Shown: piece after piece, positions 51,118 through 59,079 of the stretch | How the letters are laid out: every line of letters starts with the position of its first letter | Position numbering within the stretch: position 1 is the first letter of the stretch | Assembly (NCBI GenBank): GCA_963731245.1 | Contig: CAVSVA010000019.1 | Coordinates: forward strand, 165,404-229,403 | Length of the DNA: 64,000 nucleotides | Direction: 5' to 3' | Origin: an uncultured Bacteroidota bacterium | Lineage (GTDB): Bacteria > Bacteroidota > Bacteroidia > Chitinophagales > Chitinophagaceae | Notes under the pieces: generated by a model | Seen by the model: the letters and a program-made list of their open reading frames with translations, nothing else | Databases searched by the model: none | What the model was told of the DNA's origin: nothing | Translations under genes and position numbers: made by a program

Positions 51118-52057
51118 ATGAAAAAAAATTTATTTCATTTTGCCGGCCAAACCAATTTTTACAGCGGAAAGGTAAGAGATGTTTACACCATAAGGAACAA
51201 TACATTGGTGATGATTGCCAGCAACCGCATTTCTGCTTTTGACGTGATATTGCCAAAGTCCATTCCTTATAAAGGTCAGGTGCTGAACCAGCTTGCAGCT
51301 TACATGCTTAATGCAACAAAAGATATTTGCCCTAACTGGTTATTGGCAACACCTGCGCCAAATGTATCAACAGGAAAAAAATGTATGCCTTTTAAAATTG
51401 AAATGGTAGTGCGTGGAAATTTAACTGGCCATGCCTGGAGCACTTATAACAGCGGCAAACGCAAATTTATGCGGCGTTGCTATGCCGGAAGGAATGAAAG
51501 AAAATGATGTTTTTCCAACACCCATAATTACGCCAAGCACTAAAGCAGCAGAAGGGCATGATGAAGACATTCAAGCAGAAGAAATTATAAAGCAAATTTA
51601 GCTACGGAAGAAGAATGGAAACTGTTAAGAAATATGCATTACGATTATTTGAAAGAGGCAAAGAAATTGCTGCAAAGCAAGGTTTGATTTTGGCTGATAC
51701 AAAATATGAATTTGGTAAAATTGGCGATGAAATTTATTTAATGGATGAAATTCATACGCCAGATTCCTCAAGGTATTTTTATGCAGATGGCTTTGATGAA
51801 CGTCAGCAAAAAGGTGAACGGCAAAAGCAATTAAGCAAAGAGTTTGTTCGTGAATGGCTGATCGAAAATAATTTTATGGGAAAGGAAGGGCAAACTGTTC
51901 CCGAAATGAGTGATGAATGGATAAACACCATTTCGCCAGCGTTACATTGAACTATATGAAACGTGATCGGTGAAACATTTATGCCTGAAAACATGAGTGA
52001 TGATGAAGTGCATGGAAAGTAGAAGAATGGTTAAAGAACAAGATTTTGAAAGATTGA
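51118..52057 (+). CDS. purC: SAICAR synthase, frameshifted
   Basis: [42 protein letters not shown] and SKEFVREWL motifs. Confidence 0.93.
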
Positions 52058-52114: not shown

Positions 52115-53156
52115 TCACAAATCATTCAATTTCGGCCTTAATCTTTGTTTTGATTTATTAAAAACATTTCTTCCTTTATCAATTCCCTTTCTTATTTCTG
52201 CTTGCCGTTGCAAAGGCAAGTGAATGGTTTCTTTACATTCAATACTGCAACAATCATCGTATTTGGCTTTGTACATTCTTCACATTGAATAAACAACAAA
52301 TGACAGCCATTGTTTTTACAGTTTGTATGTGTATCGCAAGGCTTGCCGCATTGGTGGCAATTTGCAATAACATGTTCTGTAATTCTTTCGCCCAGACGAT
52401 TATCAAACACAAAGTTTTTACCGATGAATTTTGTTTATAATTTTTTTCTTTTACTTCTTTCGCATAATTAATAATGCCGCCTTCTAAATGAAAAACATTT
52501 TTAAAACCGTTGTGCAACATATAAGCACTTGCTTTTTCGCAACGAATGCCGCCGGTGCAATACATAATGATGTTTTTTTCTTCTTTTCCCTTCATCATGT
52601 CAGCGGCCATAGGCAGTTGTTCACGAAAAGTATCCGAGGGCAATTTCAATCGCATTTTCAAAATGCCCAACTTCATATTCATAATGGTTACGCATGTCAA
52701 TAACAATCGTATCGTTGTTTTCAAGCAAATTATTCATTTGCATTGCATTTACATAATTACCTTTGTTGTTCCATACTAAAATTAGGATCGTCTATGCCAT
52801 CGGCAACAATTTTATCCACGCACTTTTACAGATAAAACCCAAAAGCTTTTGCCATCATCATCAACAGCAATATTTAAACGAACGCCATTTAATTCATCAA
52901 TTGAATACAGAAAATTTTTGAAAGATTCAAAGTTTGATGAGGGAACACTTATCTGTGCATTGATACCTTCTTTGGCAACATAAATTCTTCCAAAAACTTT
53001 TAAATTATATAAGTGCTTATATAATTTATCCCGAAATTCCTGCGGATTATTAACAGGAAAATATTTATAAAAACTGATGGTAGTTCTTGGTTCAGTTTCT
53101 TCCAATAAACGGCGCTTTAATTCTTCGCCTGAAATACGGTTGTGTAATAAAGGCAT
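52115..53156 (-). CDS. trhO: Rhodanese-domain YceA/TrhO family protein (putative tRNA U34 hydroxylase), frameshifted
   Basis: [50 protein letters not shown] and C..C...HTNC...CH.L.IQC motifs. Confidence 0.85.
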
Positions 53157-53411: not shown

Positions 53412-53442
53412 TTTGCTGCCTTAAAAAATAAACACAGTTTTG
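53412..53442 (+). promoter_or_regulatory. Putative primary-sigma promoter for the leader-MATE transcript
   Basis: TTTG-N19-CAGTTTTG, one mismatch to the Bacteroidota TTTG-N19..21-TAnnTTTG consensus. Confidence 0.5.
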
Positions 53443-53461
53443 CATCACAAAATTTTAAACA

Positions 53462-53560
53462 GTGAAATTGCAACGCACATATTTATTTATCAATTACAGA
53501 GAGAATTTTCTCGCTGTACCTGGTTATAATTTTGCGGGGCATGGTTACACCTTTAGCTAA
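53462..53560 (+). CDS. Putative 32-aa leader peptide
   Basis: GTG start after TTTTAAACA; MKLQRTYLFINYRENFLAVPGYNFAGHGYTFS*; contains the antiterminator strand. Confidence 0.6.
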   Translation: MKLQRTYLFINYRENFLAVPGYNFAGHGYTFS

Positions 53561-53588
53561 CGATACAACTGTTACTAACTGACTATAC

Positions 53589-53611
53589 AGCCCCGCTCAG
53601 CGGGGTTTTTT
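53589..53611 (+). terminator. Attenuator terminator upstream of MATE
   Basis: AGCCCCGC-tca-GCGGGGTT followed by a T-run, ending about 52 nt before the MATE start codon. Confidence 0.8.
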
Positions 53612-53663
53612 ATTGCCTTTCGCTGAGTTGCAGATAATGCCAAACTTTTTAAACTAACTATAA

Positions 53664-55082
53664 ATGATGAAACAATCAGCATATAAACAAAGCGGAGCTT
53701 TTTCTTTAATAATGCAGGCAATTAAGGGAATTGAAATGGATTATACCAAAGGCAGTTTGCGCAAAGCAATCTTCATGCTTGCAATACCCATGATTCTTGA
53801 AATGTGCATGGAGAGCGTGTTTGCTTTGGTAGATTTATTTTTTGTGGGCCATCTTCCAAATGCCCAGCATACAGTGCAAACAGTGGGTTTAACAGAATCT
53901 GTATTGTCAATAATTTATTCCATTGCATTTGGCGTAAGCATGGCTGCAACAGCGGTGGTGGCAAGGCGTGTGGGCGAAAAAAATAAAGAAGAAGCGGCGC
54001 ACTCTGCGGTGCAGGCAATATGGCTTGCATTGGTAATAACTGTTGTGATAAGTATAACAGGAATTGTATTTGCGCCTGAAATTTTAAAAGCAATGAGTGC
54101 TGATGTCGAAACAATAGCCATTGGCAGCACGTATGCAAGAATTGATATTGGCGGAAGCATTGTAATTATGATGCTCTTTCTCATCAACGGAATTTTTCGC
54201 GGTGCAGGCGATGCATCAATGGCAATGAAAAGTTTGTGGCTGGCAAACATCTGCAACATCATTCTTTGTCCGTTATTTATTCGTGGTTTTGGTGCTATAC
54301 CTGCGTTTGGATTAACCGGCGCAGCAATGGCAACAACAACAGGAAGAGGTGTTGGTGTTTGTTATCAATTGTATCATTTGTTTAAAGGCAAATCGAGTAT
54401 TCATATTCATCGCAAACATTTAAACATTGATTGGTCAATCATTAAATCGCTTGTTAACATTGCATCACCTGCAACATTGCAATTCATTATCGGCTCATGC
54501 AGTTGGATCGTGCTTGCAAAACTGGTTGCAGAAACAGGTGAAAGTGTTGCATCTGCAGGTTATCAAACAGCCATTCGTGTGGTGATATTTTTTATATTGC
54601 CCGCATGGGGAATGAGCAATGCTTCTGCAACACTGGTTGGTCAAAACTTAGGGGCAAAGCAACCACAACGTGCAGAAGAATCTGTATTGAAAACAGCAAA
54701 GTATAATGCAATATTTATGGGTTTGGTATCTGTTATATTTCTTGCAGGCGCATCACCCATCATATCTTTTTTTACAAATGATGAAGCTGTAAAAGAAATT
54801 GCTGTGCAGGCATTACGCATTATTACAAGCGGCTATATTTTTTATGGAATTGGGATGGTGATGACAAGCGCATTCAACGGCTCAGGCGATAGCTGGACGC
54901 CAACCTGGATTAATCTTTTTTGTTTTTGGTTATTTCAAATTCCGTTTGCCTATTTACTAACAATTACTTTAAAAATGGGTCCGCTGGGTTCATTTATTTC
55001 AATACCTATTGCCAATACAGTTGTAACATTTGTTGGTTTCTATTTTTTTAAAAGAGGCAAGTGGAAAAAAATAAAAGTTTGA
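53664..55082 (+). CDS. MATE family efflux transporter
   Basis: ~12 TM segments; LAIPMILE, VDLFFV, RGAGD, GLTGAAMAT and LVGQNLGA motifs. Confidence 0.93.
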   Translation: MMKQSAYKQSGAFSLIMQAIKGIEMDYTKGSLRKAIFMLAIPMILEMCMESVFALVDLFFVGHLPNAQHTVQTVGLTESVLSIIYSIAFGVSMAATAVVARRVGEKNKEEAAHSAVQAIWLALVITVVISITGIVFAPEILKAMSADVETIAIGSTYARIDIGGSIVIMMLFLINGIFRGAGDASMAMKSLWLANICNIILCPLFIRGFGAIPAFGLTGAAMATTTGRGVGVCYQLYHLFKGKSSIHIHRKHLNIDWSIIKSLVNIASPATLQFIIGSCSWIVLAKLVAETGESVASAGYQTAIRVVIFFILPAWGMSNASATLVGQNLGAKQPQRAEESVLKTAKYNAIFMGLVSVIFLAGASPIISFFTNDEAVKEIAVQALRIITSGYIFYGIGMVMTSAFNGSGDSWTPTWINLFCFWLFQIPFAYLLTITLKMGPLGSFISIPIANTVVTFVGFYFFKRGKWKKIKV

Positions 55083-55320: not shown

Positions 55321-58300
55321 TTGGCTTTACCATATTTAATTAAATACATCTACAATAACGGTACTGATGAAGTTATACGCCGCGGCAAAAAAATTTTCTC
55401 TTCCGGTTATGTTGAGATGATCGAAAACGACGAGTTGCTTGCTGCTGTTATTTTTAGAGTAAGAGATGATGCGTATAACACTTATTATAAAGTTTATTTA
55501 AATCGTTATAATAATATTCAAACGCTTTCGCTTCGCTGCAGTTGCCCATATAACCTTGGCGATATTTGCCGCCATGAAGCAGCCGCATTATTTCGTTTGC
55601 AGGAAATGATTGATAACAATCAATTGGGCGAAACAGAAACCGAATACAGGCAGCAACATACGGTTGTAAAACTAAAGCAGCTTGACATACGTTCCGTTAA
55701 ACTGCTTTCGGCAGCCGATGCATTAACGCTTGCAGAAGATTTTTTGCGCAGTTATAAAGCCAATATTATTGAAGCCGCAAATGATATTGTAAAGGCAGAA
55801 TTAAATTACGAAGGCCAAAATTATACGTTACAATTTCGCCGCAATGATGAAAAAAATTTAGATACAAGCTGTACCTGTAATGCAGAAACGCATTATCCTT
55901 TGTGCCTGCATAAAACCATTGTGCTGCTGCAATTGCATAACAGTTATGGCCCGGCATTTTTTGATACGATAAGCAACCGCGACCGCGAAAAAAATAAGTT
56001 GCTTGCTTTATATGGTTATTCAACCGATGATGACCTTGAAGGAAAATTTGAATTTACTTTTCGTGATGGCAAACCTTTTTTGCGTGTGCTCGATCCTTCA
56101 ATCAAACGCATTATAGCGCCGCCCCCGGAAAAAACCCGTGCATATTTAATGCCCATTCACAAAGAAGTTTTGGTTGAAGAAAAACCGCCTGCAGTTTTAC
56201 ATTATCAAAAGTTAGGTGTTGTATTAAGATATGATGCGCAGCAATATCCTTTTATGCAGGCAGATGCTATTAAAGGTGAATCAAATGATGAACAAAAAAA
56301 ATTTACCGGCAAAACAGAAAGGCTTGATCTTACAAAGTTTGTAAATACAGAAGACCTGAATGAAGATGATAAAATGCTCATTCAGCACCTGCGTAAATTA
56401 TTGCCTTTAGAAGTTACGCGTTATCTCAACCGCAATTCACCATTCAGTGGCATTTGGGAAAACATAACGCAACAACATACTGATGATCTTCCGGAAGAAA
56501 CGCGCCATCTTATCATAGAATATCTTCTTCCTAAATACAAAAAATTATTTTCGGATATAAGCGAAAGCAATTTTGCTTTTACATTGCCGCCGCAAAAAAC
56601 TTTTGTAAGTGCCAATCTTGCACCGGCTGTTTTATCAAACCAATATATACAACCGCAGTTTGTTGTTGCTTATAATAACAATGCGTATGAAATAAAATGT
56701 TTTGTAAAGTTGTTGAACGCAGTTGTTGCCATCGAAGAAAATGCAATGAACTCACCGTTGGTTTTTCAGCATGAACAAACATTTTATTTATGGCAAAAAA
56801 CAGAAGATGTTTTATTGGCTGAACGTTTTTTAAAAGAAGGAAAAATTTCAGTTGCAGCAGATGATTGGAATAAGCAGCTAACTGAATTTGTGTTGCCGCT
56901 AACGAAACAATATGATGTGCAATTCAGCGGCATACAAAAAGAAGAGCTTAAAAACATTAAGCCAGAAATGCGGCTGATGATTAAAGAAAAAGGCGATTAT
57001 CTTTTGTTTCAGCCATTTTTTAATTACAATGGTTATGATGTAAGGCACGAAGATAAAGACAGAATTATTGTGCCTGCTGCAGGCAAACTTGTTATTATTC
57101 ACCGCAACGATGAAGTTGAAAAATCACTTATAAAAAAAATTGAAAATCTTCATTCATCTTTTATACATACAGATGCAGACACGCTTGCTTTAAAAGGCAC
57201 TGATGTTTTAAAAAACAACTGGTTCTTTTTATTTGCCGATGCTGTGAAGGAAATGAATATTCCGGTGTATGGATTTGATGCTTTAAAAAAATATCGCTTT
57301 AATACGGCAAAGCCATCAACCAAAATTTTTATAAGCAGTAATACAGATTGGTTTGATGCAAGAATTGATATACATTTTGGCGATCAGAAAATTACGGTGG
57401 CTGATGTAAAAAAAGCATTGGCTAATAAACAGCAATTTGTTCCGTTGGCAGATGGAACGCTTGGCATTTTGCCCGAAGAATGGATACGCCGTTATTCAAT
57501 GTTATTTGCTGTGGGCGAAGGCAAGGCCGCTAACATTAAACTAAGCAAATATCATTTTGGCGTAATTGAAGAATTGTATGCACAGCGCAATGAAGAAGAA
57601 ATATTTTTTAAGCTTGAAGAAAAATATGAGCGATTAAAAGAAAATCATACCGTAAAACAAATTGAGCCGCCAATACATCTTGCCAACATTTTGCGCCCTT
57701 ACCAGGTTTCAGGTTTTCAATGGTTGAATTATTTAAGCGAAGTGAATTGGGGCGGCATACTTGCAGATGATATGGGGCTTGGTAAAACGGTGCAGGCTTT
57801 ATCTTTTTTGCATCATTATAAAACAGAGCACGGCAAAATAAAAGCGCTTGTTGTTTGCCCAACCACGTTAATGTTTAACTGGGAAAATGAAATAAAAAAA
57901 TTCACGCCTTCTTTGGTTTGGTATATCCATCATGGCAGCACACGTTCGCAGCAAATGGAGTTATTTCAAAACGCAGATGTTGTAATTACAACTTATGGAA
58001 CGTTGCGCAGCGATATTCAATTATTTACTGAATCAGAATTTGATTATGTGGTGCTTGATGAAAGCCAGGCAATAAAAAATCCGCAAAGCAAAGTAACAAA
58101 AGCAGCCAGTTTATTAAGCGCAAAAAACCGTTTGTGCATGAGCGGAACACCTTTGCAAAACAATACATTTGATATGTATGCGCAAATGAATTTTTTAAAT
58201 CCCGGTATGTTGGGCAGCATGGAATTTTTTAGGCAGGAATTTGCAATACCCATTGATAAATTTGGTGAAAAAGAACAGAAAGAACATTTGCGCAAGCTGT

Positions 58301-59079
58301 TATATCCATTTATTTTAAGAAGAACAAAAGAACAGGTTGCAAAAGATCTTCCTGAAAAAAGCGAGATGATCTTATTCTGTGAATTGGGTGATGAGCAGCG
58401 CAAAATTTATGATGCCTACCGCAACGATTACCGTGATAAAATTTTAGGTGTTGTTGAAGATAAAGGCGTAGGCAAATCACAACTTACAATTTTGCAGGGC
58501 TTGATGAAGTTAAGGCAGATATGTGATAGCCCGGCTATTATAAATGATGAAGAAAAATATCCGAATGTTTCAGTTAAGTTAGAAGAGTTGGGAAGAGAAA
58601 TTTCTGAAAATATTGGTGATCATAAAGCGCTGGTATTTTCACAATTTTTAGGTATGCTTGCGTTGATAAAAGAAAAGATGAAAGAGCTTGGTATTGATTA
58701 TGCTTATTTTGATGGAAGCACTTCAGCACCGGATCGTGAAAAAGCAATACAGCGTTTTCAAACCGATGAAAATTGTCGTGTGTTTTTAATTTCTCTTAAA
58801 GCGGGTGGCGTTGGTTTAAATTTAACGGCCGCAGATTATGTGTACATTGTTGACCCATGGTGGAACCCGGCGGTTGAACAACAGGCAATTGACAGAACGC
58901 ATCGCATTGGCCAAACGAAAAATATTTTTGCTTACCGCATGATTTGTAAAGACACTGTTGAAGATAAAATTTTAAAACTGCAGGAACGTAAAAAGGCACT
59001 TGCTGCTGAATTAATTACCGATGATACAACATTTGTAAAGAGCCTTACCAAAGAAGATGTTGAATATTTGTTTAGTTAA
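55321..59079 (+). CDS. SWIM-domain SNF2 family helicase/ATPase
   Basis: CSC...CRH and CTC...CLH SWIM-like fingers; LADDMGLGKT, LDESQAIKN, SGTPLQN, SLKAGGVGLNL and WWNPAVEQQAIDRTHRIGQ; -7 box TATTTTTG at 55246-55253. Confidence 0.93.
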   Translation: MALPYLIKYIYNNGTDEVIRRGKKIFSSGYVEMIENDELLAAVIFRVRDDAYNTYYKVYLNRYNNIQTLSLRCSCPYNLGDICRHEAAALFRLQEMIDNNQLGETETEYRQQHTVVKLKQLDIRSVKLLSAADALTLAEDFLRSYKANIIEAANDIVKAELNYEGQNYTLQFRRNDEKNLDTSCTCNAETHYPLCLHKTIVLLQLHNSYGPAFFDTISNRDREKNKLLALYGYSTDDDLEGKFEFTFRDGKPFLRVLDPSIKRIIAPPPEKTRAYLMPIHKEVLVEEKPPAVLHYQKLGVVLRYDAQQYPFMQADAIKGESNDEQKKFTGKTERLDLTKFVNTEDLNEDDKMLIQHLRKLLPLEVTRYLNRNSPFSGIWENITQQHTDDLPEETRHLIIEYLLPKYKKLFSDISESNFAFTLPPQKTFVSANLAPAVLSNQYIQPQFVVAYNNNAYEIKCFVKLLNAVVAIEENAMNSPLVFQHEQTFYLWQKTEDVLLAERFLKEGKISVAADDWNKQLTEFVLPLTKQYDVQFSGIQKEELKNIKPEMRLMIKEKGDYLLFQPFFNYNGYDVRHEDKDRIIVPAAGKLVIIHRNDEVEKSLIKKIENLHSSFIHTDADTLALKGTDVLKNNWFFLFADAVKEMNIPVYGFDALKKYRFNTAKPSTKIFISSNTDWFDARIDIHFGDQKITVADVKKALANKQQFVPLADGTLGILPEEWIRRYSMLFAVGEGKAANIKLSKYHFGVIEELYAQRNEEEIFFKLEEKYERLKENHTVKQIEPPIHLANILRPYQVSGFQWLNYLSEVNWGGILADDMGLGKTVQALSFLHHYKTEHGKIKALVVCPTTLMFNWENEIKKFTPSLVWYIHHGSTRSQQMELFQNADVVITTYGTLRSDIQLFTESEFDYVVLDESQAIKNPQSKVTKAASLLSAKNRLCMSGTPLQNNTFDMYAQMNFLNPGMLGSMEFFRQEFAIPIDKFGEKEQKEHLRKLLYPFILRRTKEQVAKDLPEKSEMILFCELGDEQRKIYDAYRNDYRDKILGVVEDKGVGKSQLTILQGLMKLRQICDSPAIINDEEKYPNVSVKLEELGREISENIGDHKALVFSQFLGMLALIKEKMKELGIDYAYFDGSTSAPDREKAIQRFQTDENCRVFLISLKAGGVGLNLTAADYVYIVDPWWNPAVEQQAIDRTHRIGQTKNIFAYRMICKDTVEDKILKLQERKKALAAELITDDTTFVKSLTKEDVEYLFS

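Follow-up and report, generated by a model that had tools for sequence, protein, structure and literature searches.

The leader in front of a MATE-family efflux gene of an uncultured Chitinophagaceae bacterium is predicted, with high confidence, to be a ribosome-dependent transcription attenuator. It lies in a stretch of 64,000 nucleotides (contig CAVSVA010000019.1, positions 165,404 to 229,403), referred to here as the window. The signal to which the attenuator responds is probably general trouble in elongation, as would be caused by tRNA loss or cleavage, starvation, or ribosome antibiotics.

Layout of the leader in the window

The promoter, the 32-codon upstream open reading frame (uORF) with four Tyr and four Phe codons, the terminator, and the MATE gene were confirmed where a preliminary description of this DNA had placed them (Table 1). 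Promoters of Bacteroidota follow the consensus TTTG / TAnnTTTG, and the window promoter departs from it at one position, in the -7 box. The TT(T/C)G of this box is kept across alignments A1 and A2. A search for a sigma70-like promoter at 53412-53442 found none.

Table 1. Coordinates of the leader elements in the window and of amino-acid leaders.
Feature	Position	Strand	Details
Predicted Bacteroidota-type housekeeping promoter	53412..53442	+	From sequence; -33 TTTG 53412-53415, 19-nt spacer, -7 CAGTTTTG 53435-53442
Transcription start, inferred	near 53448	+	From promoter position
uORF	53462..53560	+	GTG start, 32 codons, 4 Tyr and 4 Phe; translation inferred
Region 1, anti-antiterminator TGCAACGCA	53469..53477	+	Codons 3-6; pairs with region 2 in the naked OFF fold
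Region 2, antiterminator box TGCGGGGCA	53533..53541	+	Codons 24-27
Window-specific antiterminator extension	53541..53586	+	53541-53547 with 53580-53586, around stop-codon hairpin 53553-53578
Spacer motif CAACTGTTACTAACTG(A)	53566..53582	+	First 14 nt invariant in 18 genus leaders
Intrinsic terminator	53589..53611	+	Region 3 53589-53596, region 4 53600-53607, U-run 53606-53611
Region 5, C-rich tract	53615..53627	+	Can pair with region 4 after read-through
MATE-family efflux transporter	53664..55082	+	472 aa; first gene under the leader
Trp, Phe, His, and Lys/Thr-type leaders of the source genome	C3:154642, C1:337877, C14:64519, C20:122344
trp leaders with WW/WWW	L307:4969-5099, L308, L309		Before trpE

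The terminator stem (53589-53607) is predicted at -13.5 kcal/mol. The competing antiterminator pairs GCGGGGC (53534-53540) with GCCCCGC (53590-53596) and ATGGTTA (53541-53547) with TGACTAT (53580-53586, two G-U pairs); this 7+7-bp helix reaches -16.5 kcal/mol alone and -22.5 kcal/mol together with the nested stop-codon hairpin (53553-53578). Folding of the whole window leader gives z = -4.2 relative to 200 shuffles. Terminators by themselves are not above chance in the window (2 found, 2.0 expected), so this one is taken as real because it is conserved and not from its own score. The preliminary description had presented the 7+7-bp antiterminator as a unit. Its outer GC helix is conserved, whereas the inner seven pairs, with a mean of only -1.9 kcal/mol over 31 leaders, were rejected as a family feature. 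The pairing of CTCAGCG with CGCTGAG (53621-53627), put forward in the same description, forms in the folds and is supported for the genus, but is weak in most other genera: region 5 pairs with region 4 at -11.6 in the window versus -6.7 when shuffled, and this pairing beats the shuffled one in 19 of 20 Parafilimonas-type leaders.

RNA polymerase pauses at the pattern G-10 Y-1 G+1. T53580/G53581 together with G53571 fit this pattern, a weak match given that the leader holds three such sites. The TAAC/GTTA core of the stop-codon hairpin shows zero double changes within the genus. No further copies of the leader were found in the source genome by profile or covariance models. With the families of Rfam 15, the window gave 0 matches at the gathering threshold and only noise at E up to 10; the best leader-type match was Trp_leader at 17.1 of 41 bits, below threshold, and 20 related loci gave tRNA-clan matches only. 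No tRNA genes were found in the window.

Conservation and covariation of the leader

MATE orthologues are present in 20 of the 23 same-genus genomes. An open uORF of 31-34 codons, the GCGGGG box, the spacer, and the terminator were found at 18/18 Parafilimonas MATE loci, these being the loci with complete upstream DNA. The loci were chosen via the MATE protein and not via the leader, so this count is not circular. A nineteenth genus MATE locus with the leader (L305) was located later, and named Parafilimonas records bear the same leader, the cultured Parafilimonas terrae DSM 28286 (L068) being one of the carriers. Nucleotide identity of the uORF is about 55% among the 18 loci. A set of 72 leaders, 52 from the family and 20 of Parafilimonas type, was used for further comparison, with uORFs of 27-34 codons throughout. 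In the first set of 31 leaders, which are related homologues, the uORF is open in 31/31 and the other two frames in 5 and 1 (4.2 expected after shuffling). The distance from box to stop codon is nearly constant (median 26 nt, quartiles 26-27), and the terminator begins 23-39 nt after the uORF stop.

It is very unlikely that a protein or small ligand binds the leader, for example at the invariant CAACTGTTACTAACT spacer, and that the ORF is incidental. The spacer is invariant within the genus, as a binding site might be, but it degenerates in other genera while the ORF persists. Only 12 and 1 of the 72 leaders have the alternative frames open, no Rfam riboswitch was matched, and the same layout bears Trp, Phe, or His runs elsewhere in the source genome.

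At the RNA level, the predicted attenuator has three mutually exclusive helices, 1:2, 2:3, and 3:4, each with compensatory changes in the alignment of the 72 leaders (A4). Conservation of the small ORF and covariation of the helices had been named as checks in the preliminary description, and both were found. The homologues are related, which inflates the counts of double changes, and the shuffle counts given here are not probabilities; the covariance model used to gather leaders scored terminator pairs only. Helix 2:3 is 89.9% paired and carries 5 double changes (0/500); the terminator helix is 92.6% paired, and 6 of its 8 pairs contribute 13 double changes (0/500). In a smaller set of 28 sequences, helix 2:3 showed no double change. 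Helix 1:2 carries 23 double changes versus 12.9 after shuffling (0/500). Controls with slid helices were paired at 26-53%, compared with 78-93% for the true helices. Homologues read region 2 in each of the three frames, which places the constraint on it at the RNA level.

Region 1, the anti-antiterminator at the start of the uORF, was absent from the preliminary description. Its duplex with region 2 averages -11.0/-11.5 kcal/mol over the 72 leaders versus -5.7/-5.3 kcal/mol when shuffled, and the cognate pairs were beaten by non-cognate ones in 0/5000 and 6/5000 permutations. In other genera, region 1 is the start-codon region itself. Another candidate for this role, CTCGC at about 53510-53514 (from RNAalifold), was rejected at -7.4 kcal/mol versus -6.5 kcal/mol for shuffles.

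Ribosome position and the proposed switch

The three helices suggest how ribosome position could set the outcome. A ribosome that keeps pace would reach codons 22-30 and cover region 2 as region 3 emerges, so that the terminator would form. Once the ribosome has arrived at the stop codon, or if no ribosome is present, region 1 would capture region 2 and transcription would likewise terminate. A ribosome held at the start or at codons 1-21 would mask region 1 or separate it from its partner; region 2 could then pair with region 3 before synthesis of region 4, allowing RNA polymerase to read through. A ribosome lagging anywhere in roughly the first 21 codons would thus let transcription enter the MATE gene.

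Footprint folding of the window leader fits this scheme at most positions: of the 21 in codons 1-21, 18 give P(2:3) > 0.5, and P(terminator) is 1.00 from codon 22; the terminator is also favoured without a ribosome. Among homologues, helix 2:3 forms before region 4 is made in 51-52 of 52 family leaders and 18-20 of 20 genus leaders. Leaving region 2 free does not stop the finished terminator from prevailing at equilibrium in about 42/52 family and 14-16/20 genus leaders. In naked RNA before region 4, helix 2:3 beats 1:2 in 50/52 family and 15/20 genus leaders, and helix 1:2 exceeds P = 0.5 before region 3 is made in only 23/52 and 12/20. Equilibrium folding is not decisive across homologues, so the switch would have to be kinetic. 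The Trp, Phe, and His control leaders of the source genome likewise retain their terminator when folded in this way. In the excerpt of PMC13323073 drawn on here, the phyla listed with runaway transcription do not include Bacteroidota.

Amino-acid variety of the uORF and selection on the peptide

The uORF has no run of any one codon, and across homologues it holds many different amino acids. Family uORFs (52 leaders) carry 17.4 different residues in 29 codons, compared with 14.0 in proteins of the source genome and 14.7 after shuffling; Parafilimonas-type uORFs (20 leaders) carry 16.7, compared with 14.4 and 15.1. Within-column permutation of non-consensus residues gave 16.5 for the family (0/3000) and 16.1 for the genus (3/3000). 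The same permutation on 14 control windows from MATE genes shifted the count by at most 0.19, with one window at z 3.4. Starting from the richest sequence, neutral drift to 35% divergence would leave about 15.2 residues, and the observed mean divergence is 32%. In the sensing window of the uORF, 14.6 amino acids occur in 18.9 codons in the family versus 11.8 when shuffled (51/52 leaders above), and 15.0 versus 12.5 in the genus (20/20 above); such breadth of codons ahead of the antiterminator is expected of general translation-stress attenuators of the whiB7/bmrB type. The window peptide alone is not significantly diverse (16 different amino acids after the initiator, p 0.3), with Cys, Asp, Trp, and internal Met missing.

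The lack of a single-codon run, together with the many amino acids kept, suggests that the signal is general. Selection for amino-acid variety rather than for sequence is an unusual signature, and it could be used to find such sensors elsewhere. A side observation concerns isoleucine: ATA makes up 52 of 126 Ile codons in family uORFs, with 28% genome-wide in the source genome. The tRNA arrays found behind leaders in other genera (L207, L210, L212, L215, L226, L233, L234, L241, and others) often include a tRNA-Ile with a TAT anticodon.

The same attenuator might instead act as a narrow sensor, responding mainly to drugs that trap the ribosome at initiation or at the first codons, or to drug-dependent arrest at a peptide motif. 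Three observations would suit such a sensor: region 1 overlaps or adjoins the start codon, the first gene here is a drug pump, and a consensus (H-I-E, F-S-P, D-Y) can be recognised in the family peptides, where Ile and Pro codons vary synonymously. However, pN/pS values are 0.75 and 0.84 (uncorrected), variability differs little between codon positions 1-3, the peptide of the genus bears little resemblance to the family consensus, and the 3' end of the uORF is found in all three frames. A sensor of initiation only would not need about 20 diverse codons. Arrest peptides of the ermCL type have a conserved nascent-peptide motif under strong purifying selection, and the weak peptide-level selection observed here argues against an arrest peptide; a drug-dependent arrest peptide was rejected on these grounds, with the frame changes and the difference between genus and family peptides. 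The narrow sensor as a whole is considered unlikely.

Amino-acid leaders elsewhere in the source genome

A de novo scan of the source genome for a promoter, uORF, box, and terminator returned 8 candidates, one of which was the studied element. Four others belong to the Trp, Phe, His, and Lys/Thr types and precede trpE, prephenate dehydratase, hisG, and asd. The source genome evidently uses this layout for ribosome sensing, as its Trp, Phe, and His leaders show. The trp leaders of Parafilimonas score weakly on model R2 (47-55 bits) and have the start motif, the G-rich box, and the GCCCCG arm in common with the studied element, which suggests a shared chassis. No Rfam leader matched the three trp leaders L307-L309 at E up to 0.05.

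The preliminary description had also offered the leader as an aromatic amino-acid sensor. Of the window codons, 8/32 are Tyr or Phe, and Tyr makes up about 7% in the genus versus 4% in the proteome. Across 30 leaders, however, Tyr and Phe together number 2-8 per uORF without a run, the window being the maximum, and Tyr7 is the only near-invariant aromatic residue. The source genome has separate Phe-run (prephenate dehydratase, pheA-type), Trp-run (trpE), and His-run leaders. Aromatic sensing was rejected because Tyr and Phe are not conserved and these dedicated leaders exist; the run of cognate codons and the matching biosynthetic gene that mark amino-acid-specific leaders are also absent, the downstream genes being MATE, tRNA, and RtcB genes. 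It is the least credible of the readings weighed here.

Operons headed by the leader family

The family set was extended by a pattern scan of GTDB and by the covariance model with terminator pairs only. The pattern scan returned at least 119 loci, many of them chance or gene-end terminators. Among the top model matches that were fetched, 42/44 had a promoter-like box and an ORF of about 30 codons; L216 and L244 were not leaders and were dropped, one of the 42 accepted leaders doubled as a training locus, and G047:C1 and G055:C58 lie in the same score range outside the set. Downstream genes were tallied by hand at 40 loci, leaving out L206 and L224 at contig edges, and Pfam was run on 97 of the 114 listed downstream ORFs (the first four per locus, short ones dropped).

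Genes linked to tRNA supply and RNA repair predominate behind these leaders in other Chitinophagaceae genera. tRNA genes follow on the same strand at 28/40 loci (five or more in 20, up to 18), together with RtcB at 15, an RNase-H-like protein (PF04308) at 19, AAA at 16, SPFH at 13, and TROVE at 2; at least one of these is present downstream at 39/40. Among cultured bacteria, Foetidibacter luteolus (L132) carries a leader of the tRNA-array type. The breadth of codons in the uORF, combined with the tRNA/RtcB output, points to a sensor of general elongation stress. The translation-stress or antibiotic sensor proposed in the preliminary description is favoured, judging from conservation, covariation, the genes of relatives, and look-alike attenuators.

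In the genera closest to Parafilimonas, MATE sits inside the operon, beside AAA, RlaP, RNase-H-like, or RtcB genes and a few tRNAs, and AAA or RtcB still follows MATE in several Parafilimonas genomes. Five genomes carry a second leader copy, and three of these copies head tRNAs with RNase-H-like and RtcB genes, or RtcB. We take the leader to have been, ancestrally, the switch of the Chitinophagaceae spare-tRNA/RtcB operon, which MATE probably joined as a passenger particular to certain lineages. Two single loci are also of note. A second leader (L306, G161:C105:135033-135189) lies directly after leader, MATE, and AAA at a contig end, forming tandem attenuators. In a Parafilimonas record (L078:1850-3141), the gene immediately behind the leader is the ABC ATPase gene found after MATE in other members, and MATE appears to have been lost from this position.

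Outside the family, model R1 on 150 genomes of the phylum scored at most 37.3 bits beyond Chitinophagaceae, the top match being an ordinary gene-end terminator, and model R2 on 150 genomes of the class scored at most 48.5 bits, compared with 66-126 for true leaders. The leader thus was not found outside Chitinophagaceae with these two models, a result that does not establish absence.

MATE orthologues of other Chitinophagaceae genera (L007-L030) have a different leader, with a promoter-like box and a very short uORF (MKF, MKIC, MIF, MKL, and similar, summarized as MK(F/I)x; up to 25 codons). A permissive pattern recovered a short uORF at 24/24 of these loci, counted without a chance control. 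In many folds, the ATGAAA start pairs with a U-rich stretch just before the MATE start, and the MK(F/I)x leader is a candidate translational attenuator from this modelling. The MKF uORFs presumably resemble the leader of Listeria lmo0919. Short uORFs before other-genus orthologues suggest that ribosome-linked control of MATE recurs.

Loss of the surrounding genes could also mean that the leader is a relic in the source lineage, allowing low, fixed read-through into MATE after sensing decayed with the loss of tRNAs and RtcB. RtcB, AAA, SPFH, TROVE, and a tRNA array were not found with the queries used in the source genome, which is 83% complete; its RNase-H-like gene is separate from the leader and frameshifted, and MATE is the only recognisable operon member left behind the leader. 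Amino-acid variety is weaker in the genus, with Glu missing in 13/20 leaders. However, 18/18 genus loci retain the ORF together with the three helices in spite of the divergence of the uORF, variety in the genus is still above permutation, and ribosome-linked control of MATE seems to recur with the MK(F/I)x uORFs. Decay of the sensor is accordingly held to be quite improbable.

Relation to known attenuators

The comparisons in this section draw on excerpts of the cited articles. The whiB7 attenuator of mycobacteria also combines a uORF with an intrinsic terminator and antiterminator; it responds to ribosome antibiotics and to shortage of the amino acids of its uORF, which encodes 19 of the 20 amino acids in M. 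smegmatis and whose amino acids decide which starvations induce (PMC10274678). It belongs to another phylum, and its uORF is longer, enriched in Ala, and controls a transcription factor (PMC10274678), whereas the studied leader has about 30 codons without enrichment and controls tRNAs, RtcB, and MATE. Loss of the start codon raises expression in whiB7 (PMC10274678), and region 1 predicts the opposite here. In bmrB-bmrCD of Bacillus subtilis, a GTG leader ORF, terminator, antiterminator, and anti-antiterminator precede a drug-efflux gene, ribosome antibiotics induce, and start loss lowers read-through (PMC4191407). That pump is an ABC transporter, and the bmrB excerpt holds no link to tRNA or RtcB (PMC4191407); the pump here is a MATE transporter. 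The bmrB ORF of 162 bp also encloses its terminator (PMC4191407), which in the studied leaders lies past the stop codon. Overall, the studied leader is predicted to work in the manner of whiB7 and bmrB, on an apparent chassis shared with the amino-acid attenuators of its own genome.

The 1:2 / 2:3 / 3:4 logic is that of the trpL, hisL, and pheL attenuators. Unlike these, the studied leader has no one-codon run, a longer ORF with variety kept, and genes for translation rescue or efflux instead of biosynthesis. In Escherichia coli, many classes of ribosome antibiotics are sensed by a single uORF, toiL (before topAI-yjhQ), on which ribosomes stall at varying positions; the mechanism there is translational attenuation followed by Rho termination (PMC12121999), as opposed to the intrinsic terminator switch predicted here. 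Spare tRNAs with RtcB, the genes headed by the leader in other Chitinophagaceae, also make up the trn L-array and rtcB of Anabaena PCC 7120, which are co-regulated and induced by translational stress such as chloramphenicol (PMC8421152). That array is controlled at initiation via direct repeats over the -10 box (PMC8421152), with TrcR reported as the repressor (PMC10272220). Neither the stem 'attenuat' nor Chitinophagaceae occurs in the main text of PMC8421152. No description of the studied leader was found in the open-access literature, excluding the supplements of papers on trn arrays and riboregulator prediction.

A more specific proposal, which we put forward tentatively and at somewhat less than even confidence, is that the chassis of Chitinophagaceae amino-acid attenuators had its one-codon run replaced by a 'test strip' of about 30 codons in which selection maintains nearly every amino acid. 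Destruction or shortage of almost any tRNA, for example through anticodon nucleases, would then directly switch on spare tRNAs and RtcB without a regulator protein, and MATE would be wired to the same sensor in Parafilimonas and close genera. If this proposal is true, the pump likely exports a translation inhibitor. It predicts that recoding one uORF codon removes the response to loss of that tRNA. The leader would constitute a protein-free answer to spare tRNA/RtcB induction outside cyanobacteria, in a large soil family. For the window itself, the MATE pump is predicted to be induced by ribosome-targeting compounds and may export them.

The MATE gene and its neighbours

The protein encoded under the leader matches TIGR00797 (E 8.7e-85, above cut-off) and PF01554, and its closest solved relative is PF0708 (4mlb, E 1e-43). 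In the sole RNA run examined, two short pieces of the MATE ORF were covered by reads from another organism, and no reads lay over the leader. An SNF2 helicase gene (55321-59079), with an N-terminal motif that we take to be SWIM-like, begins 238 nt after MATE; it does not follow MATE in the genus loci listed and is therefore probably not part of the unit. Upstream, purC (SAICAR synthetase, 51118-51950) and trhO (52254-53156) are each split over several frames. The trpE and RNase-H-like genes of the source genome are split as well, and a related contig set has a single-base indel at 52816, so indel errors in the assembly are likely. Elsewhere in the source genome (C12:161490-164500), a CRISPR-like array of GTTGTGATTTGCTTTCATT... 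repeats is present, with copies that differ by small indels.
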